DNA of 64,000 nucleotides from a bacterium (GCA_036524115.1 DATDCY010000315.1:41917-105916); one strand, 5' to 3'. Shown: positions 35,582 through 58,671, numbered from the stretch's first letter. Made by a program: numbers and translations. The notes: generated by a model from the letters alone, not told the origin.

Positions 35582-35589
35582 CGCGCCCC

Positions 35590-38503: not shown

Positions 38504-39868
38504 TCATCGCACGAGGTGCTCCCACAGGGGGCCGGACCGGCCGCGCTGGTGCATACGCTGGAGGATGGCCGTCGCGGCGTCCCCGCCGGAGGCCTCGACC
38601 CAGTTGTCCCGCCCCCGGGCCCGCTTGGCCAGGGCCTGCGCGATCGCGGGAAGGGTGATCCCCGCCGGCTGGTAGAACACCGGTTCCACGATGTTCGCTC
38701 CGGCGGCGATCTGCCCCTCCCGCACGGCCAGTTCGTGCAGGGGCGTGTTCGGGTAGATGCGCATGCCGCCGAAGAGGAAGAGAACGGTCCTCTCGAGCGT
38801 CTCGATCTGCGCCAGGGTGTCGGCGAACGTCTCCTCCGTCTCACCGGGGCCGCCGAAGAGGAGGTAGTGGGCCACGTGCAGGCCGGCGGCCCGCGCGGCG
38901 CGGTGGGCGGCCAGCACCTCGCTGCGGCGGAAGGGCTTGCCGTAGGCCTTCAGGACGCCGTCCGTCAGGGACTCCGTGCCGAATTCCACGTGCCTGAGCC
39001 CGCAGGCGGCCATGGTCTCGAAGTAGCCCTCCGGCAGGGCGACGGGCGCGAAGAAGCCGCCCCAGGGGATCGTGAGGCCGTGCTCCCGGAAGGCGCGGGC
39101 GACCTCCAGGCTGTGTCCCACGTCGGCGTTGAACGCCGAGTCGGTGATGAAGAGGTACCGGGCCCCCGCCTCCTGGAGCCGCAGGGCGGTGGCCGCCACC
39201 TCGTCGACCGGCGCGTGGCGCAGGCGCCGGCCCTCGATGCGCGGGTAGGTGCAGTAGACGCAGCGGAACGGGCAGCCGCGCTTGGTCTGGAGATTGAGCA
39301 TGCCGCCGTTGCGCAGGTAGAAGTCCACGTGCCCGGCCCGCGCGTCGAAGCGGCGCCTGACGGACTGCGGCCAGGGCTCCGGCGCGGGCAGCGGCGGCCC
39401 CGCGTCCGCCCCGCTCCGGGTCACGACGCCCGGCAGGCCGGCCGGGTCCAGCCCCGCGGCCAGCGCCTCGAGCAGCGCTTCGAGCCGCTCGCCCTCGCCG
39501 ACTATTCCGTAGTCGGCCTCCAGCAGTTCCATGGCTTCGCCCGGGAAGATCGTGAAGCCGCTGCCCCCCAGCACGATCGGCGCCCCGCTGCAGCGGCGGA
39601 CGCGAAGGGCGAGCTGGCGATAGTCCCCCATGTAGCTGCGGGGGGCGCGGCTGTCGGTGTTGTCTGCGTTGCGGAGCGAGAGCCCGATGACTTCGGGGCT
39701 CCATTCGGCGACGGCGCGCTCCAGCGCCTGGTCCTCGCCCAGACAGTTGAGGTCCAGGCAGCGCACCTCGTGCCGCGCGGAGATGGACCCCGCCACGTAG
39801 TCGAGGCCCAGCGGGTAGACCGGGAACGGCTCGCGCACGGTGTTGACGGAGAGCAGGAGCACTCTCAT
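38504..39868 (-). CDS. B12-binding (class B) radical SAM enzyme
   Basis: An N-terminal B12-binding-like Rossmann segment is present (MRVLLLSVN...VIGLS). The rSAM cluster is RGCPFRCVYCTYP. The ORF is 454 aa. Confidence 0.85.
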   Translation of the reverse strand: MRVLLLSVNTVREPFPVYPLGLDYVAGSISARHEVRCLDLNCLGEDQALERAVAEWSPEVIGLSLRNADNTDSRAPRSYMGDYRQLALRVRRCSGAPIVLGGSGFTIFPGEAMELLEADYGIVGEGERLEALLEALAAGLDPAGLPGVVTRSGADAGPPLPAPEPWPQSVRRRFDARAGHVDFYLRNGGMLNLQTKRGCPFRCVYCTYPRIEGRRLRHAPVDEVAATALRLQEAGARYLFITDSAFNADVGHSLEVARAFREHGLTIPWGGFFAPVALPEGYFETMAACGLRHVEFGTESLTDGVLKAYGKPFRRSEVLAAHRAARAAGLHVAHYLLFGGPGETEETFADTLAQIETLERTVLFLFGGMRIYPNTPLHELAVREGQIAAGANIVEPVFYQPAGITLPAIAQALAKRARGRDNWVEASGGDAATAILQRMHQRGRSGPLWEHLVR

Positions 39869-42027
39869 CGCGGCCCGACCATCACGGCGGAGGAGGAGAG
39901 GCCGAGGCCCAGCAGCAGGACGCCCCGGCCGCCGAGGGGGACATCGACCCCGCCGGCGAGGGCGGCCGGGACGAGCTGGTCCCGGACCATCCGGTGCGCG
40001 AGGACCGCCGCAACCGCCGAGGCCGCGCCGAACTGACCGATGGCGCGGCGATAGTCGATCACGGGCCTATCGAAGCCGCTGGCCGCCACGAAGGCCGCCA
40101 GGTCGCGGGAGGCCGCCTCGGCGTGCCCGGCGGGGATGCCGGCGAGGATGGCGCCGACGGTGTTGCGGACGTTCCCGGCCCCACCCGCGGCCTCGAGCAG
40201 CGCCTGCATCGCGTCCGCCCCCGAATCGCCGCGATACGCCAGGAGGGCGACCGTGGGCTCGTCGCCGCGCGCCCGCCGCAGCAGCAGCGCCCCGCCCCCG
40301 TCGGCCGGCGGGGTGCCGCGCACCGAGTCGTCGAACAGCGGCGCCAGCGACGGATGGCCCTCGTCGACGCCGAGCACGAGGACCGCCTGGCCGGGGTCGC
40401 CCGCCAGCAGATCGGCCGCCAGCAGCGCCTGCTCGAAGGAGGCGTCGCCGCCCGTGGTCGTGACGTTGGCCCCCCGGGCGCCGAGGTGCATCGCGATCTG
40501 GCCGGCTGGCGCGTTGTGCACCGAGCCGACGAAGTCCGTGGGGGAGGGGAACCGCTGCCGCGTCTCGAAGAGCCGGCGCAGGAAGTCGTGCGTCTCCGAG
40601 AGCGCGCCCCAGGCCGTGCCGAGGCAGACGGCCATGGGCCCGGCGCCGGCGGGCGCGCCGTGACAGGCCTCGGTCGCCAGGGCCAGGGCCAGCCGCGACA
40701 GACGCTTGAGTCGACGGACGACGCGCGACGGCAGCTCCCCGCAGATCGCCTGCTCGTCGAGGCAGCCGGCGCAACTGCCGCCCGCCGCGAAGCGCTCCCA
40801 GGTGGCGCGCGTGCCGCCGGCCCCGGTCAGGCAGGCGGCGGCAGCGATTGCCAGTGCGGGCGGACGCGGTGGCATCGCGCGAGCGGTCCCGGGCCGGGCC
40901 CTGCCGATCACCAGCGCCGCGTTGTTCCCGCCGAACCCGAAGGAGTTGGAGAGCACGGTGCCGATGCTCCGCCGGACAGGCGCCGTCACCGGGTCCAGCT
41001 TCAGCTGCGGATCGACGTTCTCCAGTCCCGCGTTGGCCGGTGCGAAGCCCTCGTTCACGGCCAGGGCCGAGACCACGGCTTCTATCGCGCCCGCCGCGGC
41101 CAGACTGTGTCCGGTCGCCCCCTTGATCGAGGAGAGAGCGGGCGGGTGATCCCCGAAAAGCGAGACGACGGCCCGCGCCTCGGCCAGGTCGTTGTCCTCG
41201 GTGCCGGTGCCGTGGAGATTGATGTAGTCGATTTCCTCGGGCGCCACGCCGGCGTCGGCGAGGGCGGCCCGCATCGCGGCGATCGCCCCCAGGCCCTCGG
41301 GGTGGGGCGCCGCCGGGTGGTGGGCGTCGCACGACAGGCCGGCCCCCAGTAGCTGCGCGCCCCCGCCGGCGGGCGGATCGCTCGTGAGCAGGAGCAGGGC
41401 CGCGCCCTCCGCCACCGACATGCCGTGCCGGTCGCGGTCGAGCGGGCGGCTGCCCCGCGGGTCGATGAGCTGGAGGGAGTGGAATCCGAAGTAGGTCAGG
41501 CGGCAGAGGCTGTCGGCGCCGCCGGCCAGCACCCGCCGCGCCAGCCCGCGGCGCAGCATGGCCATCGCGAGGGCGATCGCCACGGCGCCCGACGAGCAGG
41601 CGGTGGAGACGGTGATGAGCGGGCCGCGGCAGCCGCAGCGCCGGGCAAGCAGCTCGGCCACGGTGCCGGCGCCGTGATGGCGGTAGGCGGCCGGGTCCTC
41701 GCAGCCGCCTTCCAGCAGCGTCTCGGTGCGCAGGATGCCGCCGGTCGTCGTGCCCAGGACGATGGCGTCGACCGGGCCCGGGGCGCCGGCCAGGGCCTGG
41801 TCCGCGGCAAGGCAGGCCAGACGGTGTGTGCGGGGGAGGCGTTCGCCTTCGTCCTCCGCGAGGTCCACCGCCCCGACGGGCAGGTCGTTCCCGGATTCGA
41901 TGGGGAAGATTCGCAGCGGCCCCAGCCCGCGTCGTGCTTCGAGCAGGGCCGACAGCGTCTGGTCCGTGCCGCTCCCGAGGGCGCCGATCACCCCCATCCC
42001 GGCGATGGAGACCGGGCCACCGCTCAA
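39865..42027 (-). CDS. Ketosynthase fused to a Cys-less KS-like (chain-length-factor-like) domain
   Basis: The N-terminal half has VSIAGMGVIGALG, TACSSGAVAIA, NLHGTGTEDND and GATGHSLAAAGAIE. The C-terminal half has KS-like LAIAAAACLTGAG...RRLKRLSRLALALATEA but no active-site Cys (VHNAPAGQIAM). No stop lies between the halves in this frame. The TTG start overlaps the ACP stop (TTGA). Confidence 0.65.
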   Translation of the reverse strand: MSGGPVSIAGMGVIGALGSGTDQTLSALLEARRGLGPLRIFPIESGNDLPVGAVDLAEDEGERLPRTHRLACLAADQALAGAPGPVDAIVLGTTTGGILRTETLLEGGCEDPAAYRHHGAGTVAELLARRCGCRGPLITVSTACSSGAVAIALAMAMLRRGLARRVLAGGADSLCRLTYFGFHSLQLIDPRGSRPLDRDRHGMSVAEGAALLLLTSDPPAGGGAQLLGAGLSCDAHHPAAPHPEGLGAIAAMRAALADAGVAPEEIDYINLHGTGTEDNDLAEARAVVSLFGDHPPALSSIKGATGHSLAAAGAIEAVVSALAVNEGFAPANAGLENVDPQLKLDPVTAPVRRSIGTVLSNSFGFGGNNAALVIGRARPGTARAMPPRPPALAIAAAACLTGAGGTRATWERFAAGGSCAGCLDEQAICGELPSRVVRRLKRLSRLALALATEACHGAPAGAGPMAVCLGTAWGALSETHDFLRRLFETRQRFPSPTDFVGSVHNAPAGQIAMHLGARGANVTTTGGDASFEQALLAADLLAGDPGQAVLVLGVDEGHPSLAPLFDDSVRGTPPADGGGALLLRRARGDEPTVALLAYRGDSGADAMQALLEAAGGAGNVRNTVGAILAGIPAGHAEAASRDLAAFVAASGFDRPVIDYRRAIGQFGAASAVAAVLAHRMVRDQLVPAALAGGVDVPLGGRGVLLLGLGLSSSAVMVGPR

Positions 42028-42299
42028 CTGGTGAGCCTCGGGGACTTCTCCTGGATGTAGCTGGCGAGCGTCCGCAGGGAGGCGAAGACCCTGGCGCCCA
42101 GCTCCTTGTTGTCGATGACGACCCCGTAGTCCCGCTCGATCATGACGACCATTTCCAGGGTGTCGATGGAGTCGATCCCCAGGTCGCCGCCGACGAGCCG
42201 GCCGTCCAGGGGGATGTCGGCGGGGGTGACGTCCGGGAGGTTGAGGATCTGAACGATCTTGACCCGCAGCGCTTCGATCAGCGTGTCCATGTCCTCCAC
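42024..42299 (-). CDS. Acyl carrier protein
   Basis: GGDLGIDSIDTLEMVVMIERDYG is present. The ORF is 91 aa. Confidence 0.8.
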   Translation of the reverse strand: MEDMDTLIEALRVKIVQILNLPDVTPADIPLDGRLVGGDLGIDSIDTLEMVVMIERDYGVVIDNKELGARVFASLRTLASYIQEKSPRLTS

Positions 42300-42316
42300 A
42301 TGATATCATCTTTCCC

Positions 42317-42766
42317 ATGGGCGCCGAGGGGACGCAGGGCGGTCCGAACGTGGACCTCGAGACGCTCGTACCCCATCGCGGCCGCATGCTGCTGCTCTCG
42401 GAGATCGTCTCGTTCGATACGGACGAGGCCACCTGCCGCGCCGTCGTGCGCGAGGGCTGGCCGCTGACCGGGGAAGGCGGCGCCGACCCGCTGGTGCTCA
42501 TCGAGCTGGTTGCCCAGACGGCGGCGGTCAACAACGGCTGGAACATCATCCAGACGCAGGAGCCGGGGCGGCACCACCGCGGCTGGATCGCGGGCATCAA
42601 GAGCGCCCGGCTGGGGGTCGACCGCATCGCCCTCGGCACGGCGCTGACGACCCGGGCGCGGAACCAGTTCGCCTACGAGGAGTTCCGCGAGATCGAGGGC
42701 ACGGTCAGCATCGGCGCGGAGGTCGTGGCCGAGGTGACGCTGCAACTCGTGCAGGCGGCGCCGTGA
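42317..42766 (+). CDS. Hotdog-fold dehydratase (FabA/FabZ-like, APE-type)
   Basis: LVPHRGRMLLLSEIVSFD...LIELVAQTAAV is present. The ORF is 149 aa. Confidence 0.7.
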   Translation: MGAEGTQGGPNVDLETLVPHRGRMLLLSEIVSFDTDEATCRAVVREGWPLTGEGGADPLVLIELVAQTAAVNNGWNIIQTQEPGRHHRGWIAGIKSARLGVDRIALGTALTTRARNQFAYEEFREIEGTVSIGAEVVAEVTLQLVQAAP

Positions 42767-43500
42767 CGGACGCTCCCGCATCGCCGGCCGCGCTCGTCAC
42801 GGGCGGCAGCAAGGGCATCGGGCGCGCCATCTGCGTGGAGCTGGCCCGCGTCGGCTACGAGGTGATCGTCAACTACCACTCCGACGCCGACGGCGCCCGC
42901 GAGACCGTCGCCCAGATCGAGGCCGTGGGCGGCAAGGGCAGCTGCGCCGGCTTCGACGTCGCCGACGCCGAGGCGACCGGCCGGGCCATGGAGGAGATCT
43001 TCGCGGCCCACCCCGCGGTGGACGTGCTCGTCAACAACGCCGGCCGCGTCGCGGACGAACTGTTCGTCATGATGAAGCCGGAGGCCTGGCGCAGCGTGAT
43101 TGACGTCACCCTCCAGGGCTTCTACAACGTGACGAAACCGGTGCTGGAGAAGATGGTTGTGCACCGCAGGGGCGCGATCGTCTCGATCGCCTCGGTCTCG
43201 GGCCTCATGGGCAACCGCGGGCAGGCCAACTACGCCGCCGCCAAGGCCGGCCTCATCGGCGCCAGCCGCTCCGTGGCCGCCGAGGTCGCGCGCCTGGGCA
43301 TCCGCGTCAACGTCGTGGCACCCGGCCTGATCCAGACCGCGATGATCCAGGAGGCGCCGGTGCAGAAGATCAAGGGCCTCATCCCGATGGCCCGCGTGGG
43401 GACGCCCGAGGAGGTGGCGCGGGTGGTGCGGTTCCTCTGCTCCGAGGACGCCAGCTACGTCACCGGCCAGGTTCTGTCGGTGAACGGGGGGATGTTCTGA
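42763..43500 (+). CDS. fabG: 3-oxoacyl-ACP reductase (SDR, FabG-like)
   Basis: TGGSKGIGRAI...NNAG...YAAAKAG...PGLIQTAM is present. The GTG start overlaps the upstream stop (GTGA). Confidence 0.9.
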   Translation: MTDAPASPAALVTGGSKGIGRAICVELARVGYEVIVNYHSDADGARETVAQIEAVGGKGSCAGFDVADAEATGRAMEEIFAAHPAVDVLVNNAGRVADELFVMMKPEAWRSVIDVTLQGFYNVTKPVLEKMVVHRRGAIVSIASVSGLMGNRGQANYAAAKAGLIGASRSVAAEVARLGIRVNVVAPGLIQTAMIQEAPVQKIKGLIPMARVGTPEEVARVVRFLCSEDASYVTGQVLSVNGGMF

Positions 43501-44765
43501 ACCTCAAGCTCATCTATCCGCGCTGGCCGAAGCTCATGAGCCAGACGGAGTTCCACCTGCCGCCGCACGGCCCGGTCGTCATGGCCGCCGCCCTGCCGCC
43601 GGATGTCGCCGTCACCTTCGTCGACGAGAACGTGGAGGAGCTGGACCTCGACGATCGCCCCGACGCGGTCGCCATCTCCATGATGCTCACCAGCCAGGTC
43701 CGGCGCGGCTGGGAGATCGCCGACGCCTACCGCCGCGCGGGCGTGCCGGTCGTCTGCGGCGGGATCGCCACCATGCTGCACGCCGAGGAGACGCAGACGC
43801 ACGCCGACGCCGTCTTCCTCGGCGAGGCCGAGGGGCGCATGGAGACGCTCGTCGACGACCTGCGCCGCCGCCGGCTCAAGCCGGTCTATGACTACCTGCG
43901 CCAGCCGCCGCCCATCGAGATCGTGGGCACCGCCCGGCGCGACATCCTGCGGCGGGAGCTCTACAACTACCGGGGCGTGCAGATGGTGGATCTCGTGCAC
44001 GCCTCGCGTGGCTGCCGCTACAACTGCTACCCCTGCTGCGTCTCCTACCTCGGCGGCCGCGTGTTCCGGCCCCGGCCGATCGACCGGACCATCGCCGAGA
44101 TGGCCGCCATCGACAACAACCGCCTCTTCATCGTGGACAACTCGCTGGCCCAGGACCGGAAGTGGGAGCTGGACCTCTTCCGCGAGATGATCCCCCTGAA
44201 GAAGAAGTGGTGCTGCCACCCCATCGAGGACGACCCCGAGGTGCTCGACCTGGCCGCGCAGGCCGGCGCCTGGTACGTCTACCAGGCGGTCTTCGACACC
44301 TCCGACTACATCCGCGAGCGCATCCGGCGCTACCACGACCACGGCATCGGCGTGGAGGGCACCATCCTGCTCGGCCTGGACGAGCACACCGAGGACGACA
44401 TCAAGCGCCTCGTCGACTTCCTGCTGGAGATCGAGCTGGACCTCGCCGAGTTCACGGTCCTCACGCCGTTCCCCCACACCCGCGCCTACGAAGACCTGCA
44501 GCGCGACGGGCGCATCCTCTCGCACGACTGGAACGACTACACCGCCGACAAGGTCGTCTTCCAGCCCAAGCAGATGAGCGCGGAGCGGCTCCAGGAGCTG
44601 CTGGCGTACGCCTGGGACACCTTCTACCGCGACGAGCCCCAGCCGATGAAGATGTCGAAGCTCTTCACGAGGGTGATCCGCAAGGAGATGGCCGACGGCA
44701 CCGCCCGCCCCCGCCAGCGGGAGCTGCGCGGCCGGGCGTTCGGGAAGACGGTTGGGGGGATGTGA
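43476..44765 (+). CDS. B12-binding (class B) radical SAM enzyme
   Basis: SRGCRYNCYPCCVSY is present. The conserved N-terminal LKLIYPRWP lies upstream of the first ATG (43536). I therefore propose a GTG start at 43476 overlapping the fabG 3' end. The ATG-only model is 43536..44765. Confidence 0.75.
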   Translation, partial: VGERGDVLNLKLIYPRWPKLMSQTEFHLPPHGPVVMAAALPPDVAVTFVDENVEELDLDDRPDAVAISMMLTSQVRRGWEIADAYRRAGVPVVCGGIATMLHAEETQTHADAVFLGEAEGRMETLVDDLRRRRLKPVYDYLRQPPPIEIVGTARRDILRRELYNYRGVQMVDLVHASRGCRYNCYPCCVSYLGGRVFRPRPIDRTIAEMAAIDNNRLFIVDNSLAQDRKWELDLFREMIPLKKKWCCHPIEDDPEVLDLAAQAGAWYVYQAVFDTSDYIRERIRRYHDHGIGVEGTILLGLDEHTEDDIKRLVDFLLEIELDLAEFTVLTPFPHTRAYEDLQRDGRILSHDWNDYTADKVVFQPKQMSAERLQELLAYAWDTFYRDEPQPMKMSKLFTRVIRKEMADGTARPRQRELRGRAFGKTVGGM

Positions 44766-46302: not shown

Positions 46303-47103
46303 TCACCCTTGCGCCGTCGCCCCGCCGGCCGCGGGCTCCAGCAGCGCCCGCACCTGGGCAATCAGCGCCCGGGTCGAGAAGTTCGGCCGGTCGTACGCCG
46401 GGGTGAGGCGCGCCAGCAGCCGCACCGTGATCGTGTTGGGCCGGCAGGCGGCGAAGCGGAAGCGTCCCGGCGTGAAGAGCCGCTGGGTGTTCCCGATGGC
46501 CGCCACGGCCACGGGCGCCCTGCAGAGCCGGGCGATCTTGAACGCACCGGCCTGGAGCGGGCCGACGGAGCCGTCGCGGCTGCGCGTGCCTTCAGGGAAG
46601 ACGAAGAGGTTGCCGCCCCCGGCAAGGAAGGTCCGCATCCCCTCGAGGTGCTCCAGCGTGCGCTCCGAATCGGGGCCGCCGGACGCCAGGTAGCCCGACG
46701 CGCGCAGCACCCAGCCGAGGAAGGGGTAGCGGAAGAGACGTTCCTTGACGACGGTCGTGTGCCGGGGGAAGAGGGAGATGAAGAGCAGCGGGTCGAGATA
46801 CGAGAGGTGGTTGCACACGACGACCGAGCCGCTCACGGCGGTCAGCGCCGGGTCGATCTCCCAGCGCTGCCGGGGCATGAGCAGCCGGCAGAGTCGGAAG
46901 AAGCCCCGGTAGAAAAGATTGTTGAGGCGCTGCGCCGCCCGGGCGCGGTTGTGCCCCAGCGCCATCGCCAGGAGGCAGAGGGGCGCGAAAAAGAACACGA
47001 AGCCGAGTATGAAGTATCCCCAGAGGACGAGCGTGACCGCGACCTCGACCGCCCACGTCAGGAGGCGCGGCAGGCCCGTTCGTGCGTCCGCGCCGCCGCT
47101 CAC
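46303..47103 (-). CDS. PlsC-family lysophospholipid acyltransferase
   Basis: VVCNHLSYLDPL (HX4D) and FPEGTRS are present. Two N-terminal TM helices are present. The GTG start overlaps the upstream KS stop (GTGA). Confidence 0.8.
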   Translation of the reverse strand: MSGGADARTGLPRLLTWAVEVAVTLVLWGYFILGFVFFFAPLCLLAMALGHNRARAAQRLNNLFYRGFFRLCRLLMPRQRWEIDPALTAVSGSVVVCNHLSYLDPLLFISLFPRHTTVVKERLFRYPFLGWVLRASGYLASGGPDSERTLEHLEGMRTFLAGGGNLFVFPEGTRSRDGSVGPLQAGAFKIARLCRAPVAVAAIGNTQRLFTPGRFRFAACRPNTITVRLLARLTPAYDRPNFSTRALIAQVRALLEPAAGGATAQG

Positions 47104-48364: not shown

Positions 48365-48624
48365 TCAGGCGGCCGTGCGGGCGGCGGCCAGGCGCAGGAC
48401 GTAGTCCACGATCTGGCCGACGGTCCTGATCTCCATGGCGCTCTTCTTCTCCTCGTAGGTCAGGGGGCTGCCGAGGAGCAGCTCGATCTCGCGCAGCAGC
48501 TCGACCGCGTCGATGCTGTCGAACTCGTAGGCCTCGCGCAGGTCCTCGTCCTGGCCCGGGTCCTTGATCTCGAAGCGCTCCGCGAAGACCTTGAGGATGG
48601 CGGCACGGGCTTCGTCGCGGGTCA
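48365..48624 (-). CDS. Acyl carrier protein
   Basis: EFDSIDAVELL is present. The start is placed at MTRDEARAAILK. An upstream ATG at 48644 is an alternative. Confidence 0.7.
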
Positions 48625-51034: not shown

Positions 51035-52746
51035 GTGAAGGCTTCGGGGAGGAAGGCGATCGCCCAGGTGCCCGGTCCCATGTGGGCGCCGGAGGTCAGG
51101 GAGAGGGGGCGCACCAGGATCGAGGCGCGCGGCAGCAGCGCGCGCACCTCCCGGGCGGCGACCTCCTCGACCCAGGGCCGGTTGTCGGAGTACTGCAACA
51201 GGATCAGCGGCGCGGACCCGGGGGGAAGCGCCGCCTCGAGCCTGCCGCGGGCGAACGCCACCTGGTCCTCGCGCCGGTGGACCACCCCCACCTTGACCGC
51301 GCCCTCGGCCAGCGGCGAGACGACCGGCTTCATGCGCAGGAGATCGCCAAAGAAGCCCTGGGTCTTCGAGATCCGCCCGCCGGCGGCCAGGAACTTGAGC
51401 TGGTCGAGGAAGATGAACTCCTGGGCGTGCGCGAGCGCCGCGCGGGCGAACTCCCGCACCGCCTCGACGCCGTGGCCCGCGCAGGCGTGGCGGGCGGCGG
51501 CCAGCGCGACGATGCCCAGGCGGCCGGCGGCGGTTCCGGTGTCGACGATGCTCAGCCGCCCCTCCGGGTCGTTCGCCGCCTGCCAGGACGTCGCCGCCGC
51601 GACGTTGCCCGTGTAGTACGACCCGACGCAGAGGTAGAGCACGTGCCGGTGGCGGCTGACGGCGCTCAGGTAGCTCTGGTGCCTCTGGAACACCGACGCC
51701 TGCGCCGTGGAGACCCTCGTCCCGCCGGCCATGGCCTCGTAGAGGGTCTCCGGGGCCACCAGCGTCTCGGGCCAGGACTGGTCGCCCAGCACCAGGTAGC
51801 TGTCCAGGACGGTGATGCCGAGGGAGGCGGCGTCCTCCGCGCCGATCGAGCCGGCCGCATCCGTCATGACGTGCACGGCCTGCGATGCGCGCGCGGCTGG
51901 GACGGCCGCAGCGGCGATCCGCTCCTCGCGCCAGGAGATCACGGGACCGATCTGGGCCAGCCCGCGCCGCAGCGCGTCCCGGTCGCCGGTGTGCAGGTGG
52001 ATCTTCACGCCGCCGGTCCCCTCGCTGACCACCACGCTCTCGCCCAACGTGCCCAGCAGCTCCCGCGCTTCGTCCGCGTCCCTGTCGGACCCCACCAGGG
52101 TGCTGACGCAGTAGCCGGCCTGCGCCTCCTCCGGGCGCCAACGCTCGGCCACCGCGAGCCCTGTGCTGAAGCGCTCGGTCACCGGACGCGCCTCGCCGCG
52201 CCCCGCAAGCTCGTGGAGGAGGGTCTCGACGAAGATGAACATGCCGAGGGCGCCGGCGTCCACCACGCCCGCGCGGGACATCTCGGGGAGGATCGTGGCG
52301 GTCGCGGCCACGCTCTTCTCCAGGACCTCGACGATGTCTTCCGCGTCCCAATCCGACGGCGGCACCGACCCGGGCGGCAGGGCGCCGGCGAGGTCGTCGA
52401 GCAGCGTGAGCATGGTGCCCGGCTTGGGGTCTGCCACGGCGCGGCGCGCCTCGCCCGCCCCTCGGCGCACGGCCGCGGCCAGGTCTTCGGGGGCCTGTGC
52501 CTCGAGAAGGGGCCGGAGGAAGGCGGCCGCGATGTTGCCGGCGTTGCCCGTCGCCGCCCCGAGGATCCGCCGGGCCGCCTCCCCGGGACGGTCCGGCAGC
52601 AGGCGCAGCGGCGCGAGGCTGACCCTGAGGTTGCGGCCGGTGTCGGCGTCGGCCACGGGAAAGACGTTGATCGCGTCGAGCAGGTCCGACCAGGCCGCGA
52701 GGCGCTCGTACCCCTTGACAAGGGCGCTGCCGAGGCGCCGGTCCAT
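51031..52746 (-). CDS. DAK2 (DhaL-like) domain fused to DegV-family fatty-acid-binding domain (fatty acid kinase-like)
   Basis: The N-terminal half has NVFPVADADTGRNL. The C-terminal half has VHVMTDAAGSIGAEDAASLGITVLDSYLVLGDQSW. The ORF is 571 aa. Confidence 0.65.
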   Translation of the reverse strand: MDRRLGSALVKGYERLAAWSDLLDAINVFPVADADTGRNLRVSLAPLRLLPDRPGEAARRILGAATGNAGNIAAAFLRPLLEAQAPEDLAAAVRRGAGEARRAVADPKPGTMLTLLDDLAGALPPGSVPPSDWDAEDIVEVLEKSVAATATILPEMSRAGVVDAGALGMFIFVETLLHELAGRGEARPVTERFSTGLAVAERWRPEEAQAGYCVSTLVGSDRDADEARELLGTLGESVVVSEGTGGVKIHLHTGDRDALRRGLAQIGPVISWREERIAAAAVPAARASQAVHVMTDAAGSIGAEDAASLGITVLDSYLVLGDQSWPETLVAPETLYEAMAGGTRVSTAQASVFQRHQSYLSAVSRHRHVLYLCVGSYYTGNVAAATSWQAANDPEGRLSIVDTGTAAGRLGIVALAAARHACAGHGVEAVREFARAALAHAQEFIFLDQLKFLAAGGRISKTQGFFGDLLRMKPVVSPLAEGAVKVGVVHRREDQVAFARGRLEAALPPGSAPLILLQYSDNRPWVEEVAAREVRALLPRASILVRPLSLTSGAHMGPGTWAIAFLPEAFT

Positions 52747-53153
52747 CAGAATCCCAGCGCCTGCCGGATGTCTTCGGGGATCGTGAACTCCATCTCCATC
52801 GTCGCGTAGCGCACCGCGAGCTGCTCGCTGGTGCCGCGGGCGCAGAGGATGCCGCCGTCGACCTTGCGGATCTCGAAGGACATGCCGATCTTGTACTGCG
52901 CCTCAGTCACGGCGGCCCGGCAGACGAACTCGTCGAAGGCCCGCAGCGGGGCGATGTGCTTGAGGGCCGTGCGCGTCACCGGGAAGGCGTACCCCTTCTC
53001 GATCATGTAGGCGTAGAGATCGACGCCGCGCTCCGCGAAGAGGCCGAAGCGCGCCACGTCGAAGTACTTCAGGTAGTTGCCGTGCCACACGATGCGCAGG
53101 GGGTCCACATCGTGGAACGGGACCCTCATCCGCAGTTCGTAGACCGCTCCCAT
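52746..53153 (-). CDS. 4HBT-family thioesterase
   Basis: The start is placed at MGAVYELRMRVPFHDVDPLRIVWHGNYLKYFD. The longer ORF has an implausible N-terminus. Confidence 0.7.
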   Translation of the reverse strand: MGAVYELRMRVPFHDVDPLRIVWHGNYLKYFDVARFGLFAERGVDLYAYMIEKGYAFPVTRTALKHIAPLRAFDEFVCRAAVTEAQYKIGMSFEIRKVDGGILCARGTSEQLAVRYATMEMEFTIPEDIRQALGF

Positions 53154-53510
53154 GGCCCCAACTCTATCGCATGTCCTCACCGGGGAATGCAATCCTTTGG
53201 TGCCGAACTCACTGGAACATCCCCCATCTTCGAGGGACAGGGGATGAGCTCCAGGGTCAGGCACAGGCACACTTGCCTCACGACCGGTGCAATGCCATAA
53301 TTCAACAGTTCACAAGGCGATAGTTTGCCTCTCCTCGGGTGGACTCGGCAACGGGCCGAGAGTTGCGCGTCGTCCGGCACTGACAGCGCGATCACTGGAA
53401 GGAGGGTTCTCGTCGCTGTCCAGGACAGATCAGAGTTGATCCGCCGATCCTGAAGAAGGTCTTTGGAGAGCTCGAATTCTGGTATTCCGCAAGCATCAAA
53501 GGAGGCAGTC

Positions 53511-54108: not shown

Positions 54109-55596
54109 CTACACGCGGACCTCGCGGCGGAAGCGCTCCGGGCCGACGATGAACTGCACCGTGGCCAGCGACCCCAGGATCGTGCCCAGGATGCCGGGAG
54201 CCAGGACGCTCTGGCCGGCCAGGAAGAGGCCGCGCAGGGAGGTGCGGTTGAGCAGGGCGGCCGAGAGCATCTGCCCGGTGGAGCGCATCACGCCGTAGGC
54301 CGAGCCGCCGGGGCTCGCGACCCAGTCCCGGATGGTCAGGGGCGTGGAGACATCCAGGAGGCGCGCGTCGCCCAGGGGGCCGATGATCTTCTCCGCCTCG
54401 GCGATGACGCGACCGCCGAAGTCCGTCTTGGCCTGCAGGTAATCGTCGCCCCGGCGGCCGCTGAGCGTGTGCTGCCAAGGCTGCCACAACTCCTCGTGGC
54501 CGGAGGTGAGCACGGAAAGCAGATTCTGGTCCGGCCGTTCGCTCGGGCGCAATTGCAGGTACATCAGGTCCCGGGCGTCGCCGACGGCGTCGGTCTGGAC
54601 CGCGTAGAGATTGTGCGCCATGGCCGGCCGCCGCTCGGCCGGCACGAGGGCGTGCACTGCCGCCACGCTCCGCGTGTCCGTGAGGCCCAGGATGCGTTCC
54701 CGGTAGGAGCACTGGGTGCTCTCGGGGGCCAGCAGCTCCACCATGGCCTTGGGGTGCAGCGTGCTGACGACGAGGGGCGCGTCGACGCGCTCCCCCGACG
54801 CCAGGGTGACGCCCTGCACGCCGCCGCCGCCCGTCCGAATGCGCGCCACCCCATCCCCCGTGCGAACCGTGCCGCCCAGGGCGGCCAGGCGCCGGGCGCA
54901 GACGTCGGCCATGTGCGCGCCGTTGCTGCCCAGGCGCCACGACGAGGAGAGATAACTCGCCAGCGTCATCGTGTGATAGAAGTGGGGGCAGTCCGCGGGC
55001 GGGACCCCGATCAGGACCGACGGCAGGCCGAACACCGCCCGCAGCCCCGGCCGGCAGCCGAGGCCCTCGAGTATGCCTCCGAGAGGTGCGGTCTGCTCGA
55101 GCCAGTGCTGCGTCGGCTCGGAAGAGTAGAGAAAATCCAGGCGGTCGAACTGGACGGCGCTGCGGCGCAGCAGCTCCATCAGGGCGTCGATCTGGCGTCC
55201 CTGGTCCGGAAATGCGGCCCCCAGGGCGGCCTCGTAGGCCTCGAAACCGGCCGGCATGTCGAACGTGGCGATGCCGAGGCCCGGGTTGGTGAACAGATAG
55301 CGGTCGACGGGCCCCTCCGTGCCCATGCGCACCAGCGGCAGCTCGCCCGTGATGCCCAGGTAGTCGAAGCAGCGCCGCAGGATCTGCCCCTCGTCCAGGG
55401 CGCCCAGGTAGTGCACGCCGACGTTGCAGTGCACGCCCTGGCGCACGTAGCTGCGCATCATCCCGCCGGGCTGCCGGTTCTTCTCCAGCACCGTGACGTC
55501 GAAGCCCAGCCGCGCCAGGATGATGCCGGCGCTCAGGCCGCCGATGCCGGAGCCGATGACGAGCGCCTTTCCCCCTTCGTGTCGCAGTCTTCTCAT
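54109..55596 (-). CDS. FAD-dependent oxidoreductase, phytoene desaturase (CrtI)/amine-oxidase family
   Basis: The dinucleotide-binding motif is KALVIGSGIGGLSAGIILARLGFDVTVLEKN. The C-terminus is LFLAGQSVLAPGILGTILGS. The ATG overlaps the upstream stop (ATGA). The listed 718-aa ORF is over-extended at its N-terminus. Confidence 0.8.
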   Translation of the reverse strand: MRRLRHEGGKALVIGSGIGGLSAGIILARLGFDVTVLEKNRQPGGMMRSYVRQGVHCNVGVHYLGALDEGQILRRCFDYLGITGELPLVRMGTEGPVDRYLFTNPGLGIATFDMPAGFEAYEAALGAAFPDQGRQIDALMELLRRSAVQFDRLDFLYSSEPTQHWLEQTAPLGGILEGLGCRPGLRAVFGLPSVLIGVPPADCPHFYHTMTLASYLSSSWRLGSNGAHMADVCARRLAALGGTVRTGDGVARIRTGGGGVQGVTLASGERVDAPLVVSTLHPKAMVELLAPESTQCSYRERILGLTDTRSVAAVHALVPAERRPAMAHNLYAVQTDAVGDARDLMYLQLRPSERPDQNLLSVLTSGHEELWQPWQHTLSGRRGDDYLQAKTDFGGRVIAEAEKIIGPLGDARLLDVSTPLTIRDWVASPGGSAYGVMRSTGQMLSAALLNRTSLRGLFLAGQSVLAPGILGTILGSLATVQFIVGPERFRREVRV

Positions 55597-56417
55597 GGGG
55601 TCGCCATGACGGGGCGCTGTATGAGTTCTCCCAGCGGCAGGACCGCCAGGCCCTGCGCCCGGATGCCCGCGAGGATGCGGTCCACCTCCGAGAGCCAGAC
55701 GTCGGCGCCGGCAGGGTCCCTGGGCGCGACGTCGTGCAGCATGATGATGTCCTCCGACCGCAGGCGCTCGAGGATGCGCCGGGAGAGGCGGGTGACGCTG
55801 CGGTTGCCGCGGTCGGCGGCGCGCCTGCTGAAGTTGACGACGTAGAGGCCCGTGCGCGCCAGGGCGGCGGCCAGCCGCGGGTTGGTGACGCCCACCGGGG
55901 GCCGGAAGGCCAGCGGCCGGAAGCCGAGCTGCCGGAAGACCTCCTGCGCGCCTTCGATCTCCCGGACCAGGGCGCCGGTGCTCTTGAACATGATCAGGTT
56001 GTCGTGGCTGTACGAGTGGTTGCCGACGGTGTGCCCCGCATCGAGGATGGCGCGGACCAGCCCGGGATGACTCTGCGCCTTCTGCCCGGTGATGAAGAAC
56101 GTGGCCGGCGCGCCGTGACGGGCCAGGAGATCCAGCAGCCGGGAGGTGGTCTGCGGGTCCGGCCCGTCGTCGAAGGTGAGGGCCACCGCCGGCCGGCCGG
56201 AGCACCCGCGGCTGACGATGGGCAGGAAGAAGCTGAACGCCGGGAAGAGCGGCGCCGCCAGGCACAGCACCAGGAACAGCGCGGGCGGGACGAGGGCCAC
56301 GCGCGCGCTCAAAGGCAGCAGCACGACCGCCAGCGCCAGCGCGGCCAGGCCGGAGCGTTCGGCCAGGGTGAGGCTGCGTCGAGCGCCGCTGGAGGCTTGC
56401 ATGTCAGGTGGGGCCAT
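55593..56417 (-). CDS. Polysaccharide deacetylase (NodB homology) with N-terminal TM segments
   Basis: LTFDDGPD and GNHSYSHD are present. Confidence 0.8.
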   Translation of the reverse strand: MAPPDMQASSGARRSLTLAERSGLAALALAVVLLPLSARVALVPPALFLVLCLAAPLFPAFSFFLPIVSRGCSGRPAVALTFDDGPDPQTTSRLLDLLARHGAPATFFITGQKAQSHPGLVRAILDAGHTVGNHSYSHDNLIMFKSTGALVREIEGAQEVFRQLGFRPLAFRPPVGVTNPRLAAALARTGLYVVNFSRRAADRGNRSVTRLSRRILERLRSEDIIMLHDVAPRDPAGADVWLSEVDRILAGIRAQGLAVLPLGELIQRPVMATP

Positions 56418-56440: not shown

Positions 56441-57160
56441 TCAGATCGCCAGGATGAGCACCAGCAGCGCCATGAGGTGCGCGCCGATGATGGCCCAGCG
56501 GTTGCGGTGGTAGAAGGCGTCCAGCTTCTGCAGGTTCCGCAGCCCGCCCAGCAGCCGGCGCACGCGGTCCAGGGGAAGGTAGCGCTCGTTGTCGGAGGGC
56601 GAATTGCTCTGGAAGGCGAAGGAGGGATAGAGGGCGAACGCGCGTTCGTCCCTCAGGTCCCTCAGGAAGTCATCGTAGGGCACGCCGCGCCAGGGGCGCG
56701 CCATGAGGCGCTCGGCGAACCGCCCGCTGATCGCGTAGGCGTGCGTCAGGCTGCGATAGCGTACCCGGATCACGCCCGGGAATGGCGTGCGCCCGCTGGA
56801 CTTGACCATGCAGCCGAGGAAGAACAGGTGCCAGTCCGGTTCGGCGGCGAGAAACGCGGTGCAGCGCTCCAGGGCCGCGGCGCTGAAGCCATCGAAGAAG
56901 ATGTCGTCCTCGAAGATCAGCATCCGCCTGGCGCCGGCGGCCAGTCCCCTGGCCATGCACTGCAGGTGCGACTCGTAGCAGCCCTGCTCGCGGTCGGTGG
57001 GGTGCCTCGGCACGACGACGAACTCGACCCGGTCGGCCAGGCCGACCCCGGCGAACTGAGCCGCGGCCTCGGCGCGGCGGTCGGGCCGCTCGGCCAGCGA
57101 GATGCAGTAGATCTTGTCAAAGAATTCCCAGCCTGCCACCATGCTCACCGATGTCGACAC
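56441..57160 (-). CDS. Glycosyltransferase family 25-like protein with C-terminal TM helix
   Basis: FDKIYCISLAERPDRR resembles the GT25 N-terminus. This call is tentative. Confidence 0.45.
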   Translation of the reverse strand: MSTSVSMVAGWEFFDKIYCISLAERPDRRAEAAAQFAGVGLADRVEFVVVPRHPTDREQGCYESHLQCMARGLAAGARRMLIFEDDIFFDGFSAAALERCTAFLAAEPDWHLFFLGCMVKSSGRTPFPGVIRVRYRSLTHAYAISGRFAERLMARPWRGVPYDDFLRDLRDERAFALYPSFAFQSNSPSDNERYLPLDRVRRLLGGLRNLQKLDAFYHRNRWAIIGAHLMALLVLILAI

Positions 57161-57252: not shown

Positions 57253-58671
57253 ATGAAGATCGTCCTGGTCCATCCCGCCGGCTCCAACTGGGTCCCCGGC
57301 AAGAAGGACGTGGCCGCCGTGGCCAACCGCATGGCGCCGCTGGGCCTGCTCTCCATCGCCGCCTACCTGGAGCGCGAGGGGCACGCCGTCACCGTGATCG
57401 ATTGCCTGGGGCCGCACCCCGCCGGCGCGCAGGAGACCGCACGGCGCATCCTGGCGTGCGGCCCCGACCTCGTCGGCTTCTCCGCCACCACGTCCGGCTT
57501 CCTGGACGGCCACGACCTGGCCGGCCGGCTCAAGGAGGCCCGGCCGGATCTGCCGATCGTCTTCGGCGGGGTGCACATCTCGGCTCTCGGCGCTCCGTTG
57601 CTGGACGACTACGCCCACATCGACTATCTCTGCATGGGCGAGGGTGAGCGCACCCTGGCCGAGCTGGCAGGCGGGCGGCCCCCCGCCGAGATCGACGGGC
57701 TGGCCTGGCGCGACGGCGGCCGCGCGGTGGCCAACGCGCCCCGGGCGCCGATCGCGGACCTGGACAGCCTGCCGTTCCCGGCCTACGAGAAGCTGGCCGG
57801 CTTCCCCGAGGGCTACAACCTGCCCCTGTTCAGCTTCGTCCAGGCCCCCGGGGCCACCATGGTCACCAGCCGCGGCTGCCCCTACCAGTGCTCGTACTGC
57901 GACCGCTCGGTCTTCAAGCAGGGTTTCCGCTACAACTCCGCCGACTACGTCTACGCCCACATGCAGCACCTGCGCACGCGCTTCGGCGTGCGCCACGTCA
58001 ACATCTACGACGACCTCTTCACGCTGAACCGCAAGCGCATTGCGGCGCTCTGCGAACTGCTGAGCGCGCGGCCCCTGGGGATGCAGTTCAACTGCGCCGT
58101 GCGCGTGGGCCACGCCGACGACGAGCTGCTGGCGATGCTCAGGCGGGCCGGCTGCCTGATGGTCTCGCTGGGCATCGAGACCGCCGACCCGGACCTGCTG
58201 GCGCAGCACAAGCCCGGCGTCTACCTCGAGGAAGTCCGGGAGACGGTCCGGCGCATCCAGGCCGCTGGTCTGCGCGCCAAGGGCCTCTTCATGATGGGAC
58301 TGCCCGGCGAGACCGTGGCCTCGATACGCACGACCAGCGATTTCGTCATCTCCCTGGGCCTGGACGACATGAACATGGCCAAGTTCACCCCGTTTCACGG
58401 CGCGCCGCTGTGGAAGACGATCCGGGAGGAGGGCCGCCTCGACGAGGACTGGCGCCGGATGAACTGCCTCAATTTCGTGTTCGTGCCCAGGAGCATCGAC
58501 TCGCGCGAGACGCTGGACCAGCTCTACAACACGCACGTGAAGCGCTTCTACTCGGACCGGGCGTGGCGTCGCAGGTTCCGCCGGCGGCTGTGGCAACACC
58601 GCCGCAGCCTGTGGCACCTGCTGCGGCACCTGCCGGACTTCCTTTCCGCGATGCGGACCTTCGAACCGTGA
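57253..58671 (+). CDS. B12-binding (class B) radical SAM enzyme
   Basis: The start is MKIVLVHPAG...LVGFS. The rSAM cluster is SRGCPYQCSYCD. The ORF is 472 aa. Confidence 0.85.
   Translation: MKIVLVHPAGSNWVPGKKDVAAVANRMAPLGLLSIAAYLEREGHAVTVIDCLGPHPAGAQETARRILACGPDLVGFSATTSGFLDGHDLAGRLKEARPDLPIVFGGVHISALGAPLLDDYAHIDYLCMGEGERTLAELAGGRPPAEIDGLAWRDGGRAVANAPRAPIADLDSLPFPAYEKLAGFPEGYNLPLFSFVQAPGATMVTSRGCPYQCSYCDRSVFKQGFRYNSADYVYAHMQHLRTRFGVRHVNIYDDLFTLNRKRIAALCELLSARPLGMQFNCAVRVGHADDELLAMLRRAGCLMVSLGIETADPDLLAQHKPGVYLEEVRETVRRIQAAGLRAKGLFMMGLPGETVASIRTTSDFVISLGLDDMNMAKFTPFHGAPLWKTIREEGRLDEDWRRMNCLNFVFVPRSIDSRETLDQLYNTHVKRFYSDRAWRRRFRRRLWQHRRSLWHLLRHLPDFLSAMRTFEP

Follow-up and report, generated by a model that had tools for sequence, protein, structure and literature searches.

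Four cobalamin-type and two plain radical SAM genes in a predicted ladderane-type lipid cluster from a high-GC bacterium

We analyzed a 64,000-nucleotide stretch of bacterial DNA (GCA_036524115.1, DATDCY010000315.1:41917-105916; hereafter the window), in which four radical S-adenosylmethionine (SAM) genes of the B12-binding type, R1 to R4, stand among genes for fatty-acyl and polyketide assembly. R1–R4 are probably components of one conserved gene cluster that extends from ∼31 kb to the right end of the window, with a ligase gene at 18.7 kb. The core of this cluster is a type II fatty acid synthase (FAS)- or polyketide synthase (PKS)-like machine of the aryl-polyene (APE)/flexirubin kind with six interleaved radical SAM enzymes, R1–R4 and two plain ones, S1 and S2. 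Judged from its sequence, the cluster is a member of the already catalogued “ladderane-type” family (TIGR04072; Rattray et al. 2009). A previous account made from the sequence alone (the sequence-only reading) had described R1–R4 as four paralogous class B enzymes suggestive of iterative C-methylation or other radical tailoring of an acyl or polyene chain. What it had found is real and joins a known family, but its C-methylation interpretation is at best partly right, and it had missed S1, S2, the overall architecture, and the membership of a catalogued cluster type.

Conservation of the six radical SAM genes

Because the window has a G+C content of ∼70%, genes were called from third-position GC together with a frame plot, followed by Pfam and NCBIfam scans; independent gene calls from three related loci (L163, L164, and L165) were used for gene boundaries. 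The six radical SAM genes are listed below, with Pfam scores to be read against cutoffs of 32.1 bits for B12-binding (PF02310) and 29.5 bits for Radical_SAM (PF04055).

38504..39868, minus strand: R1, B12-binding radical SAM protein (B12-binding 53.1 bits, Radical_SAM 76.1 bits)
43494..44765, plus strand: R2, divergent B12-binding radical SAM protein (B12-binding 34.3 bits, Radical_SAM 22.9 bits, the latter below cutoff)
44787..46280, minus strand: R3, B12-binding radical SAM protein (B12-binding 72.1 bits, Radical_SAM 75.8 bits)
57253..58671, plus strand: R4, B12-binding radical SAM protein (B12-binding 80.7 bits, Radical_SAM 87.6 bits)
35590..36588, minus strand: S1, non-B12 radical SAM protein (CNLRCKGC at residue 35, CCx6CxxC at residue 278)
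36603..37652, minus strand: S2, non-B12 radical SAM protein (CNIRCEGC at residue 43; start as in the L164 gene call)

All four B12-type open reading frames (ORFs) lie in the coding frame by third-position GC, essentially where the sequence-only reading had placed them. Its coordinates for R1, R3, and R4 stand, the R3 start at 46280 being backed by ortholog alignments that give no backing to a longer TTG ORF reaching 46361, whereas its R2 start at 43476 is moved by such alignments to near 43494, with 43476 also possible. The cobalamin-binding-like segment and CxxxCxxC motif it had described in each gene hold up as well: all four proteins have an N-terminal Rossmann-type B12-binding domain and, behind it, a radical SAM core with CxxxCxxC, and the motif occurs exactly once per protein, after the Rossmann-like domain (C199 in R1; C180 in R2, where it reads CRYNCYPC; C232 in R3, numbered on the long ORF; and C209 in R4). 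R2 is the weak case by Pfam, but in hhalign comparisons a profile of twelve R2 orthologs matched both the R1 family (97.6%) and the R4 family (98.1%) along its entire length, and thus the B12-type architecture extends to R2.

Pairwise identity among R1–R4 is only 23–27%, whereas each protein is 60–78% identical to its own orthologs, which occupy fixed places in the cluster elsewhere, chiefly in genomes of Desulfobacterota and Spirochaetota. Identities this low among the four imply ancient, distinct families, and the two ranges together rule out a recent duplication. The four genes also belong to different sub-modules: R1 goes with an acyl carrier protein (ACP1) and a fused ketosynthase (KS)–chain length factor (CLF); R2 with a dehydratase (DH) and a ketoreductase (KR); R3 with ACP3, the ketosynthase KS_c, and a PlsC-type acyltransferase; and R4 with the end of an operon that reads ACP2-S2-S1-KS_b-KS_a-TE-DH/PPT (TE, thioesterase; PPT, 4′-phosphopantetheinyl transferase). 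The KS, ACP, DH, and KR neighbors named by the sequence-only reading are all confirmed by Pfam. By these comparisons, R1–R4 are four distinct, separately conserved orthologous families of one cluster, and not four paralogous copies assigned to a single iterative task.

The conservation of the cluster was assessed in other genomes. A scan of species-representative genomes with R1 found an encoded relative in at least 585 species, mainly Desulfobacterales, Syntrophales/Smithella, Desulfobulbales, and Spirochaetota, with one Myxococcales; R1 homologs overall number in the thousands. The best 80 loci, none of them from anammox bacteria or Desulfotalea psychrophila, formed the locus set, and all window proteins were compared by tblastn with 34 R1-centered loci of at least 20 kb. 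A block recurs across these loci, its first part consisting of GT2-LAT (a glycosyltransferase [GT]–acyltransferase fusion), ACP3, KS_c, PlsC, and R3, its second of R2, KR, and DH, and its third of ACP1, KS-CLF, R1, (deacetylase), DH, ACP2, S2, S1, KS_b, KS_a, TE, and DH-PPT. Since the genes recur in constant order across dozens of genomes, their co-occurrence is far beyond chance. The closest relative is L165, a JGI metagenome contig (GC 0.71) that has 18 cluster genes in common with the window at a mean identity of 85%; the nearest named clusters are those of Desulfatitalea and Desulfobacteraceae, and the full block is carried by Desulfopila (L025) and Desulfocapsaceae (L036), relatives within the family of Desulfotalea. 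A reduced variant, found in the Smithella/Syntrophales-type loci L049, L061, L062, L064, L073, L076, and L078, has the order ACP1, R1, deacetylase, DH, ACP2, S2, S1, KS_b, KS_a, TE, DH-PPT, and therefore the invariant core of the family is R1 with S1/S2 and KS_a/KS_b, not the polyene module.

Each of the remaining radical SAM genes has a conserved place of its own. R2 is the last gene of a DH-KR-R2 operon, and at 30 or more loci its orthologs (68–77% identical) adjoin KR and DH. R3 ends the ACP3-KS_c-PlsC-R3 operon, and orthologs 60–76% identical to it lie inside the cluster in L004, L006, L018, L042, L058, and L077. Because R4 is too distant from R1 for its flanks to be read from R1-centered loci, metagenome contigs were scanned separately with an R4 alignment, which gave 498 relatives and 30 loci of at least 12 kb. 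R4 orthologs are 70–78% identical, about 24 of these 30 long loci carry other cluster genes, and the usual order is S2, S1, KS_b, KS_a, TE1, DH-PPT, R4. S1 and S2 share the minus-strand operon of R1 and are distant paralogs (27% identity, BLASTP E = 4.8e-36); both have a CxxxCxxC in the N-terminal part and a CCx(6)CxxC in the C-terminal part. No other protein of the cluster is as conserved as S1 (73–86% identity across Desulfobacterota and Spirochaetota, 73–83% in the R1-centered loci, 95% in L165), and S2 always adjoins S1 in the other genomes examined; S1 has no relative among solved structures beyond the cluster-binding motif and falls in no curated family. Thus, because their orthologs recur in the same cluster elsewhere, R1–R4, S1, and S2 are conserved parts of one cluster, which agrees with the earlier proposal that R1–R4 serve one fatty-acyl/polyketide-like pathway.

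Predicted chemistry of R1–R4

R1 passes the NCBIfam model TIGR04072 (rSAM_ladder_B12) with 380.8 bits over residues 2–453 (cutoff 360), while R2, R3, and R4 score 46.8, 88.2, and 90.3 bits and are non-members. R1 is 100% identical to an NCBI protein from a metagenome-assembled genome (MAG) named “lipid biosynthesis B12-binding/radical SAM protein”; our literature search found no paper on TIGR04072 or its family name. We built an AlphaFold model of R1 on the family alignment (predicted local distance difference test [pLDDT] 80.6, predicted template-modeling [pTM] score 0.83), and the structure comparison covers R1 only. The best solved relative of R1 is the tryptophan methylase TsrM (E = 1.5e-37), which the model matches with a template-modeling (TM) score of 0.83, followed by AprD4, MgmA, OxsB, CysS, and TokK. 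In TsrM, Arg69 is located under the corrin ring, and Glu273 ligates the unique iron and keeps SAM off the cluster, which makes TsrM non-radical (PMC8992657). R1 Arg66, the counterpart of TsrM Arg69 in the alignment, is kept in 64 of the 64 motif occurrences that the retrieved loci contain, and the position of Glu273 is occupied in the R1 family by Ala, Val, Thr, Ser, or Leu, never by Glu. Since the equivalent of Arg69 is kept and that of Glu273 is never Glu, R1 looks like a cobalamin enzyme that would be able to carry out normal radical SAM chemistry.

None of R1–R4 reaches the NCBIfam cutoff of a characterized C- or P-methyltransferase family (TsrM, BzaD, HpnR, PhpK, KedN5, and MgmA families). 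The best scores, in bits over the respective cutoffs, are 151.5/450 for R1 against BzaD, 130.9/500 for R1 against the TsrM family, 124/650 for R3 against HpnR, and 107.9/600 for R4 against PhpK; the KedN5 score across R1–R4 is at most 90 bits against a cutoff of 700. Only R1 has methylases, TsrM and BzaD, both of which act on sp2 carbons, as its nearest characterized relatives. R2 has no informative closest family in NCBIfam. R3 matches BchE best (163.9 bits, far under the cutoff of 481), and its best Protein Data Bank (PDB) relatives are MgmA (9ccb), TokK, and OxsB. The best matches of R4, all below cutoff, are BchE (170 bits), ApyD (168 bits), and HpnJ (168 bits), and the PDB neighbors of R3 and R4 together (MgmA, TokK, OxsB, AprD4, and CysS) are all low-scoring. 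C-methylation by all four enzymes is therefore unsupported, as R3 and R4 lie nearest to cyclase and rearrangement families (BchE, an oxidative cyclase, ApyD, and HpnJ) and R2 is without an informative neighbor. A mix of methylation and C–C bond-forming or rearranging chemistry would be equally possible.

The class B assignment had been made to depend on a cobalamin-binding motif and on the absence of kinship with HemN. The DxHxxG motif is absent from R1, R2, R3, and R4, yet this is no valid yardstick here: in the solved cobalamin-dependent radical SAM enzymes, the cofactor is bound base-off and no His serves as its ligand (PMC13331322), so that the missing motif is uninformative and expected for the class. 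A HemN-like identity of R1–R4 is ruled out by family scores of at most 23.5 bits in NCBIfam (R1 versus HemZ, 23.5; R4 versus HemW, 18.7) and by the B12 domain in all four, and no HemN-like structure is among the top structural matches of the R1 model. B12-type architecture alone does not guarantee cobalamin use, because AprD4, a close structural match of the R1 model, is a diol dehydratase that is not known to use cobalamin. No cobalamin biosynthesis or transport/uptake genes were found within the 64-kb window.

Other genes of the cluster and its surroundings

The other genes of the cluster, with the more loosely linked ligase AMP2, are as follows.

18709..20307, minus strand: AMP2, AMP-binding ligase (Pfam AMP-binding 85.9 bits)
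31036..32540 (start approximate), minus strand: DH-PPT, PKS-type dehydratase–4′-phosphopantetheinyl transferase fusion (Pfam PS-DH and ACPS)
32544..33029, minus strand: TE1, 4HBT/YbgC-type thioesterase (Pfam 4HBT_2; TIGR00051 81.9 bits, cutoff 68.7)
33031..34332 (start approximate), minus strand: KS_a, FabF-like ketosynthase (intact triad)
34331..35593 (start approximate), minus strand: KS_b, FabF-like ketosynthase (intact Cys/His/His triad)
37661..37933, minus strand: ACP2 (PP-binding domain, DSM motif)
38024..38329, minus strand: ApeI-like/FabZ-like dehydratase (Pfam ApeI-like 36.8 bits, cutoff 28.5; HxxxGxxxxP)
39865..42027, minus strand: KS-CLF fusion (Pfam ketoacyl-synt N and C, Ketoacyl-synt_2)
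42024..42290, minus strand: ACP1 (PP-binding domain, DSI serine motif; 88 aa in the L163 gene call)
42317..42766, plus strand: ApeP-like dehydratase (Pfam ApeP-like 22.2 bits, below the cutoff of 27)
42763..43500, plus strand: KR, FabG-type 3-oxoacyl-ACP reductase (NF004200 301.5 bits, cutoff 273)
46303..47103, minus strand: PlsC-type acyltransferase (Pfam Acyltransferase 68 bits)
47100..48338, minus strand: KS_c, ketosynthase (intact triad)
48365..48706, minus strand: ACP3 (PP-binding domain, DSI motif)
48724..49431, plus strand: class I SAM methyltransferase (domain match)
49418..51037, minus strand: GT2-LAT, GT2 glycosyltransferase–LpxL-like acyltransferase fusion (Pfam Glycos_transf_2 and Lip_A_acyltrans)
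51031..52746, minus strand: FakA-DegV fusion, 571 aa (Dak2/FakA N-terminal and middle domains and a full, FakB-like DegV)
52746..53270, minus strand: TE2, 4HBT-type thioesterase (domain match)
54109..55608, minus strand: phytoene-desaturase-like (CrtI/CrtD family) flavin amine oxidoreductase (Pfam Amino_oxidase 74.9 bits)
55593..56402, minus strand: polysaccharide deacetylase family protein (Pfam 109 bits)
56441..57160, minus strand: GT25-like glycosyltransferase (Pfam 35.2 bits)
61691..62377, plus strand: LolA-like carrier (Pfam LolA 56.9 bits)
62250..63998, plus strand: MMPL/RND-type transporter, running off the window end (Pfam MMPL 19.1 bits, below 20.5)

Three operons account for the core. 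Operon A (minus strand) consists of ACP1, KS-CLF, R1, the ApeI-like DH, ACP2, S2, S1, KS_b, KS_a, TE1, and DH-PPT; operon B (plus strand) of the ApeP-like DH, FabG, and R2; and operon C (minus strand) of ACP3, KS_c, PlsC, and R3. The N-terminal half of KS-CLF keeps the Cys/His/His triad, whereas the C-terminal half is without all three residues. Its best solved relatives are the ApeO-ApeC pairs of two APE synthases (7F28 and 6QSP), with the ishigamide polyene ketosynthase Iga11 (6KXD) near; the third-best PDB match of the KS is 9s5h, which may be anammox amxFabF2. The fusion is shared among more than 30 loci, being the usual form in non-anammox relatives. A 924-aa ORF at 39865–42639, considered as a single gene, was resolved into the ∼720-aa KS-CLF and the separate upstream ACP. 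The ApeI-like DH matches the PDB entries 3esi and 6qsr; the ApeP-like DH, sub-threshold here, is listed by precomputed Pfam for the same protein in L163 and L165. The second-best model for KR is the flexirubin reductase FlxB (294.7 bits), and the DH-PPT fusion is also called in L165. No enoyl reductase family was matched among the cluster proteins scanned against NCBIfam.

To the right of operon C, GT2 and the LpxL-type acyltransferase of the GT2-LAT fusion are two separate genes in L165, and a plus-strand ORF at 49496–51616 was rejected, having no Pfam match in a region where the frame plot shows the minus-strand GT2-LAT gene instead. The class I SAM methyltransferase was not found in the other loci sampled. 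FakA-DegV homologs lie beside R2 in L025, L036, L067, L154, L157, and L165, which suggests that the pathway may include a step from free acid to acyl-phosphate. Between TE2 and the CrtI-like gene, a stretch of ∼840 bp (53270–54109) has lower GC and no clear coding-frame signal, and may be an intergenic/regulatory region or a degraded gene. The CrtI-like enzyme scores 71.5 bits against the NCBIfam model crtI_fam, below cutoff, and has homologs near R1 or R4 in several loci; the deacetylase has a homolog directly after R1 in many loci, and the GT25-like gene recurs beside R4.

The genes after R4 are a MipA-family outer-membrane gene, an outer-membrane protein (OMP) β-barrel gene, DUF4079, the LolA-like carrier, and the MMPL/RND-type transporter. 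The R4 stop overlaps the start of the MipA-family gene by 4 nt (58668–60338 region), and the OMP β-barrel gene comes next, on the opposite strand from MipA. The R4–MipA pairing is seen in the same-lineage contigs L001 and L002; elsewhere MipA is not conserved beside R4 orthologs. Homolog counts of peripheral genes were taken over 165 loci. LolA-like homologs occur in 29 of these, and the best NCBIfam match of the protein is flexirubin LolA2 (73.6 bits, below the cutoff of 125); the MMPL/RND-type gene has weak HAE3 and HpnN matches and homologs in 10 of the 165. AMP2, whose best NCBIfam match is 4-coumarate-CoA ligase (101 bits, below 334) and which has ∼45% identical homologs in 22 of the 165, probably activates a starter or an acid, and its linkage to the cluster is loose.

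The left part of the window carries other genes. A set resembling that of a ribosomally synthesized and post-translationally modified peptide (RiPP) occupies 22687–28590 and includes a BtrH_N/DUF4872 protein (22687–23802), an ABC ATPase (25318–26349, minus strand), a radical SAM/SPASM maturase-like gene (26249–27592), and a second methyltransferase (27589–28590, minus strand). Homologs of this methyltransferase occur in 9 of the 165 loci, and it may for that reason belong to the lipid cluster rather than to the RiPP-like set. A Fic/DOC-family gene with a Fic_N domain (29184–30299, plus strand) lies immediately beyond the left end of the core operon and is not conserved near the cluster in other loci. 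The region 1–18712 holds unrelated genes, among them a HAMP/PAS sensor fragment, a metallo-β-lactamase-fold protein, a large multicopper-oxidase-like protein, a FecR/DUF6600 protein, a ∼1050-aa M28 peptidase-domain protein, and a 490-aa pentapeptide-repeat protein; a FadD-like long-chain acyl-CoA ligase is encoded at 17039–18712.

Candidate product and comparison with known systems

The cluster would make a specialised membrane lipid, the individual chemical steps being much less certain than the identity and architecture of the cluster. In the pathway that we consider, AMP2 or a housekeeping route would prime ACP1, and KS-CLF, FabG, and the two dehydratases would elongate the chain without enoyl reduction to give a conjugated unsaturated acyl-ACP, as expected if the cluster has no enoyl reductase. 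R1 and R2 would act on the ACP1-bound chain, and a second line (ACP2, KS_a/KS_b, S1/S2, and R4) and a third line (ACP3, KS_c, and R3) would supply or alter additional chains. Tailoring of the carrier-bound chains by the radical SAM enzymes would use oxygen-independent chemistry: C-methylation would be most likely for R1, whose nearest relatives TsrM and BzaD are sp2-carbon methylases, and radical C–C bond formation or rearrangement could also occur, R3 and R4 being nearest to BchE and HpnJ. The thioesterases would then free the acids, and the FakA-DegV fusion would reactivate them as acyl-phosphate. The PlsC-type and LpxL-type acyltransferases, the two GTs, and the deacetylase could mount these acids on a glycerol or amino-sugar head group, and delivery of the lipid to the outer membrane could fall to the LolA-like and MMPL proteins, as in APE lipids. 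Tentatively, the cluster may specify a new class of exported glycolipid in which six radical SAM enzymes rebuild polyene-type chains, with the four B12 enzymes distributed one per ACP/KS module and carrying out C-methylation, ring-forming C–C chemistry, or both in the absence of oxygen, and may be the non-anammox counterpart, possibly the source, of the ladderane machinery.

Several observations weigh against the lipid pathway considered here. Smithella-type loci are without KS-CLF, KR, and R2 within 10 kb, so the polyene module is not universal, and R2 appears tied to that module. R2, R3, and R4 reach no curated NCBIfam cutoff, and cobalamin binding by R1–R4 is predicted from their domains. 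Both the MMPL match (19.1 versus 20.5 bits) and the ApeP-like match (22.2 versus 27 bits) are sub-cutoff, and a housekeeping FabI or FabK may serve even though no enoyl reductase was found in the cluster. The window DH is barely similar to Kuenenia amxFabZ (8AYD, E = 0.0027) and the window methyltransferase is close to no anammox enzyme, the direct link to the anammox clusters being through R1. Finally, the analysis shows gene content, domain identities, the state of the active sites, and synteny, and every chemical step is inferred.

That R1–R4 are paralogous C-methyltransferases iteratively methylating one growing acyl or polyene chain is unlikely. The class B architecture of all four would suit this proposal, as would the published statement that methylation is the commonest cobalamin-dependent radical SAM reaction (PMC11659888). 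However, their low mutual identity, their separate ortholog families, and their different ACP/KS sub-modules point to four jobs. R1 is indeed nearest to methylases (TsrM 131 bits, BzaD 151 bits, with TsrM the top structural match), but R3 and R4 score best against BchE, a cyclase, ApyD, and HpnJ, which are not methylases, and the methylase cutoffs are unapproached by the set (HpnR at most 124/650, PhpK at most 108/600, and KedN5 at most 90/700). CysS and TokK do act iteratively on pantetheinyl-linked substrates, yet either enzyme repeats the methylation alone, so that four enzymes would be unnecessary.

Also improbable is the proposal of Rattray et al. that the pathway is one for polyunsaturated fatty acids or hydrocarbons under anaerobic conditions, in which the FAS-like genes, the phytoene-desaturase-like enzyme, and the radical SAM enzymes would introduce double bonds without oxygen, with neither methylation nor cyclization in the product. 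It would account for the CrtI-like oxidoreductase, the abundant dehydratases, the lack of a detected enoyl reductase, and the polyunsaturated hydrocarbons of D. psychrophila, but KS-CLF, KR, and DH alone give conjugated bonds in APE synthases, which would leave six radical SAM enzymes unexplained, and the glycosyl- and acyltransferases together with LolA/MMPL point to a complex exported lipid. The polyolefinic hydrocarbons of such bacteria, moreover, are reportedly products of the separate OleABCD pathway.

It is highly improbable that R4, and perhaps R3, are unrelated neighbors, with R4 in a separate outer-membrane operon with MipA. R4 does lie on the other strand, 11 kb away from R3 and 17 kb away from R1, and overlaps MipA by 4 nt, and R3 is absent from the equivalent position in L165. 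Orthologs of R4 (70–78%), however, stand directly after DH-PPT or beside the genes for GT25, the polysaccharide deacetylase, and the phytoene-dehydrogenase-like enzyme in most long loci, and MipA is not conserved beside them; for R4, an unrelated MipA-linked origin is rejected on this synteny. In six genomes, R3 orthologs (60–76%) likewise adjoin PlsC/KS_c or R2 or follow DH-PPT.

A ladderane (concatenated cyclobutane) product, which has been proposed for the homologous anammox clusters, is very unlikely here: R1 belongs to a family named rSAM_ladder_B12 and the window has counterparts of the ACP, KS/CLF-like pair, FabZ-like DH, phytoene-dehydrogenase-like enzyme, and B12 radical SAM protein of anammox Cluster I, but ladderanes are reported solely from anammox Planctomycetota, Desulfotalea psychrophila has a syntenic cluster and no ladderanes (PMC2649909), an R1 relative is encoded in at least 585 species outside the anammox group, the window DH is ApeI-like, and the window has outer-membrane genes (MipA, OMP barrel, and LolA-like) and no sign of an anammoxosome.

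The cluster family bears on cobalamin/radical SAM lipid chemistry and on a question open since 2009, namely how anammox bacteria assemble ladderanes and what the look-alike clusters of other bacteria produce. According to a 2026 review, ladderanes and the product of Jaw5 are the sole fatty-acyl-type lipids even proposed to be radical SAM-modified. The window shows the full family complement in one place, four cobalamin-type and two plain radical SAM enzymes anchored to modules, in a cluster whose remainder resembles an APE/flexirubin-type polyene lipid pathway with outer-membrane export. The present example belongs to an uncultured MAG and does not solve the ladderane question, but cultivable carriers of the same cluster exist (Desulfosarcina, Desulfatitalea, and Desulfotalea). 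If the product were confirmed, it would represent a new lipid class together with several new cobalamin-dependent radical SAM reaction types, and if the cluster is the counterpart of the ladderane machinery, cultivable sulfate reducers would offer a tractable route to the ladderane problem.

FAS-like clusters with B12 radical SAM genes were first described in anammox bacteria and Desulfotalea (Rattray et al. 2009, PMC2649909; see also PMC10139942, PMC13459092, and bioRxiv 10.64898/2026.05.19.726425). Cluster I of Kuenenia (kuste3603–3608) encodes amxACP, amxFabZ, a FabF2/FabFmut pair that is now known to form a KS/CLF-like heterodimer, a phytoene-dehydrogenase-like enzyme, and a B12 radical SAM protein. 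A second region, kuste3335–3352, adds two radical SAM, deacetylase-like, SAM methyltransferase, GT, and CoA-ligase-like genes and is syntenic with Desulfotalea psychrophila (DP1853/DP1855 and others), which makes no ladderanes (PMC2649909). Genome-mining papers have since listed “ladderane” clusters of unknown function in Desulfobacterota, Myxococcota, and other non-anammox phyla. The window cluster is like these in that R1 passes the TIGR04072 cutoff and in combining an ACP of its own with an active KS, an inactive CLF-like partner of that KS, and a FabZ-type DH, with ACP1, KS-CLF, R1, and DH contiguous at 38024–42290. It also has a phytoene-dehydrogenase-like flavoenzyme, two adjacent non-B12 radical SAM genes, and deacetylase-like, SAM methyltransferase, GT, and aryl/acyl-CoA-ligase-like genes, which is a match of gene content and not proven orthology. 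It differs in that KS and CLF are two proteins in anammox bacteria, whereas they are fused here and in most non-anammox relatives, and in its host, a high-GC diderm MAG and not an anammox bacterium, for which ladderanes are not expected.

The likeness to APE and flexirubin clusters covers most of the remaining genes. According to Grammbitter et al., the APE core consists of a KS (apeO/R), a CLF (apeC), two ACPs, a DH pair (apeI/P), a KR (apeQ), and a transporter (apeM). Among all solved structures, the KS half of the window fusion is nearest to ApeO-ApeC, and the KS and CLF, the extra KSs, the three ACPs, the ApeI-like DH, and the FabG KR (FlxB-like) are all present, the ApeI-like and FabG matches above cutoff, while the ApeP-like and MMPL matches are sub-threshold. 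The absence of a detected enoyl reductase, the 4HBT thioesterase, the PlsC- and LpxL-type acyltransferases, the glycosyltransferase, the LolA-like protein, the MMPL transporter, and the aryl-acid-ligase-like AMP2 extend the parallel. In the APE lipid, GalNAc-phosphate-glycerol bears an aryl polyene together with a conjugated C26:5 acyl chain, and all ape genes, in a cluster that includes a transporter, contribute to this lipid (bioRxiv 10.1101/2020.12.19.423268); this structure gives a precedent for the roles of the acyltransferase, GT, deacetylase, LolA-like, and MMPL genes proposed here. The differences are that six radical SAM enzymes are conserved core members here, that carriers of the window-type cluster are mostly anaerobes (Desulfobacterota and Spirochaetota), that the ApeP-like, MMPL, LolA2, and ligase matches fall below curated cutoffs, and that KS and CLF, fused here, are two proteins in APE clusters. 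Radical SAM enzymes are not known from APE or flexirubin clusters, and a search of our searchable library found nothing relevant that links APE-type and ladderane-type clusters via radical SAM enzymes.

Among individual enzymes, the Jaw5/C10P cyclopropanases of the jawsamycin pathway offer a precedent for a radical SAM enzyme acting on an unsaturated PKS-bound acyl chain during elongation. Jaw5, a HemN-like (class C) protein without a cobalamin domain that is partnered with an iterative type I PKS, differs from R1–R4, none of which is HemN-like. The closest characterized relatives of R1 are the sp2-carbon methylases TsrM, the thiostrepton Trp C2-methyltransferase, and BzaD, an anaerobic benzimidazole methylase; R1 differs in scoring far below both family cutoffs (500 and 450 bits) and in its substrate, since TsrM and BzaD act on free tryptophan or benzimidazole and R1 presumably on an acyl-ACP. 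CysS and TokK have the class B fold in common with R1–R4, appear among the PDB matches of R1, R3, and R4, and have been solved with pantetheinylated substrates, which makes them a precedent for carrier-tethered tailoring. Their sequence similarity to R1, R3, and R4 is low (E = 1e-7 to 1e-17), and one enzyme does all the methylations there, whereas four separate enzymes are present here.

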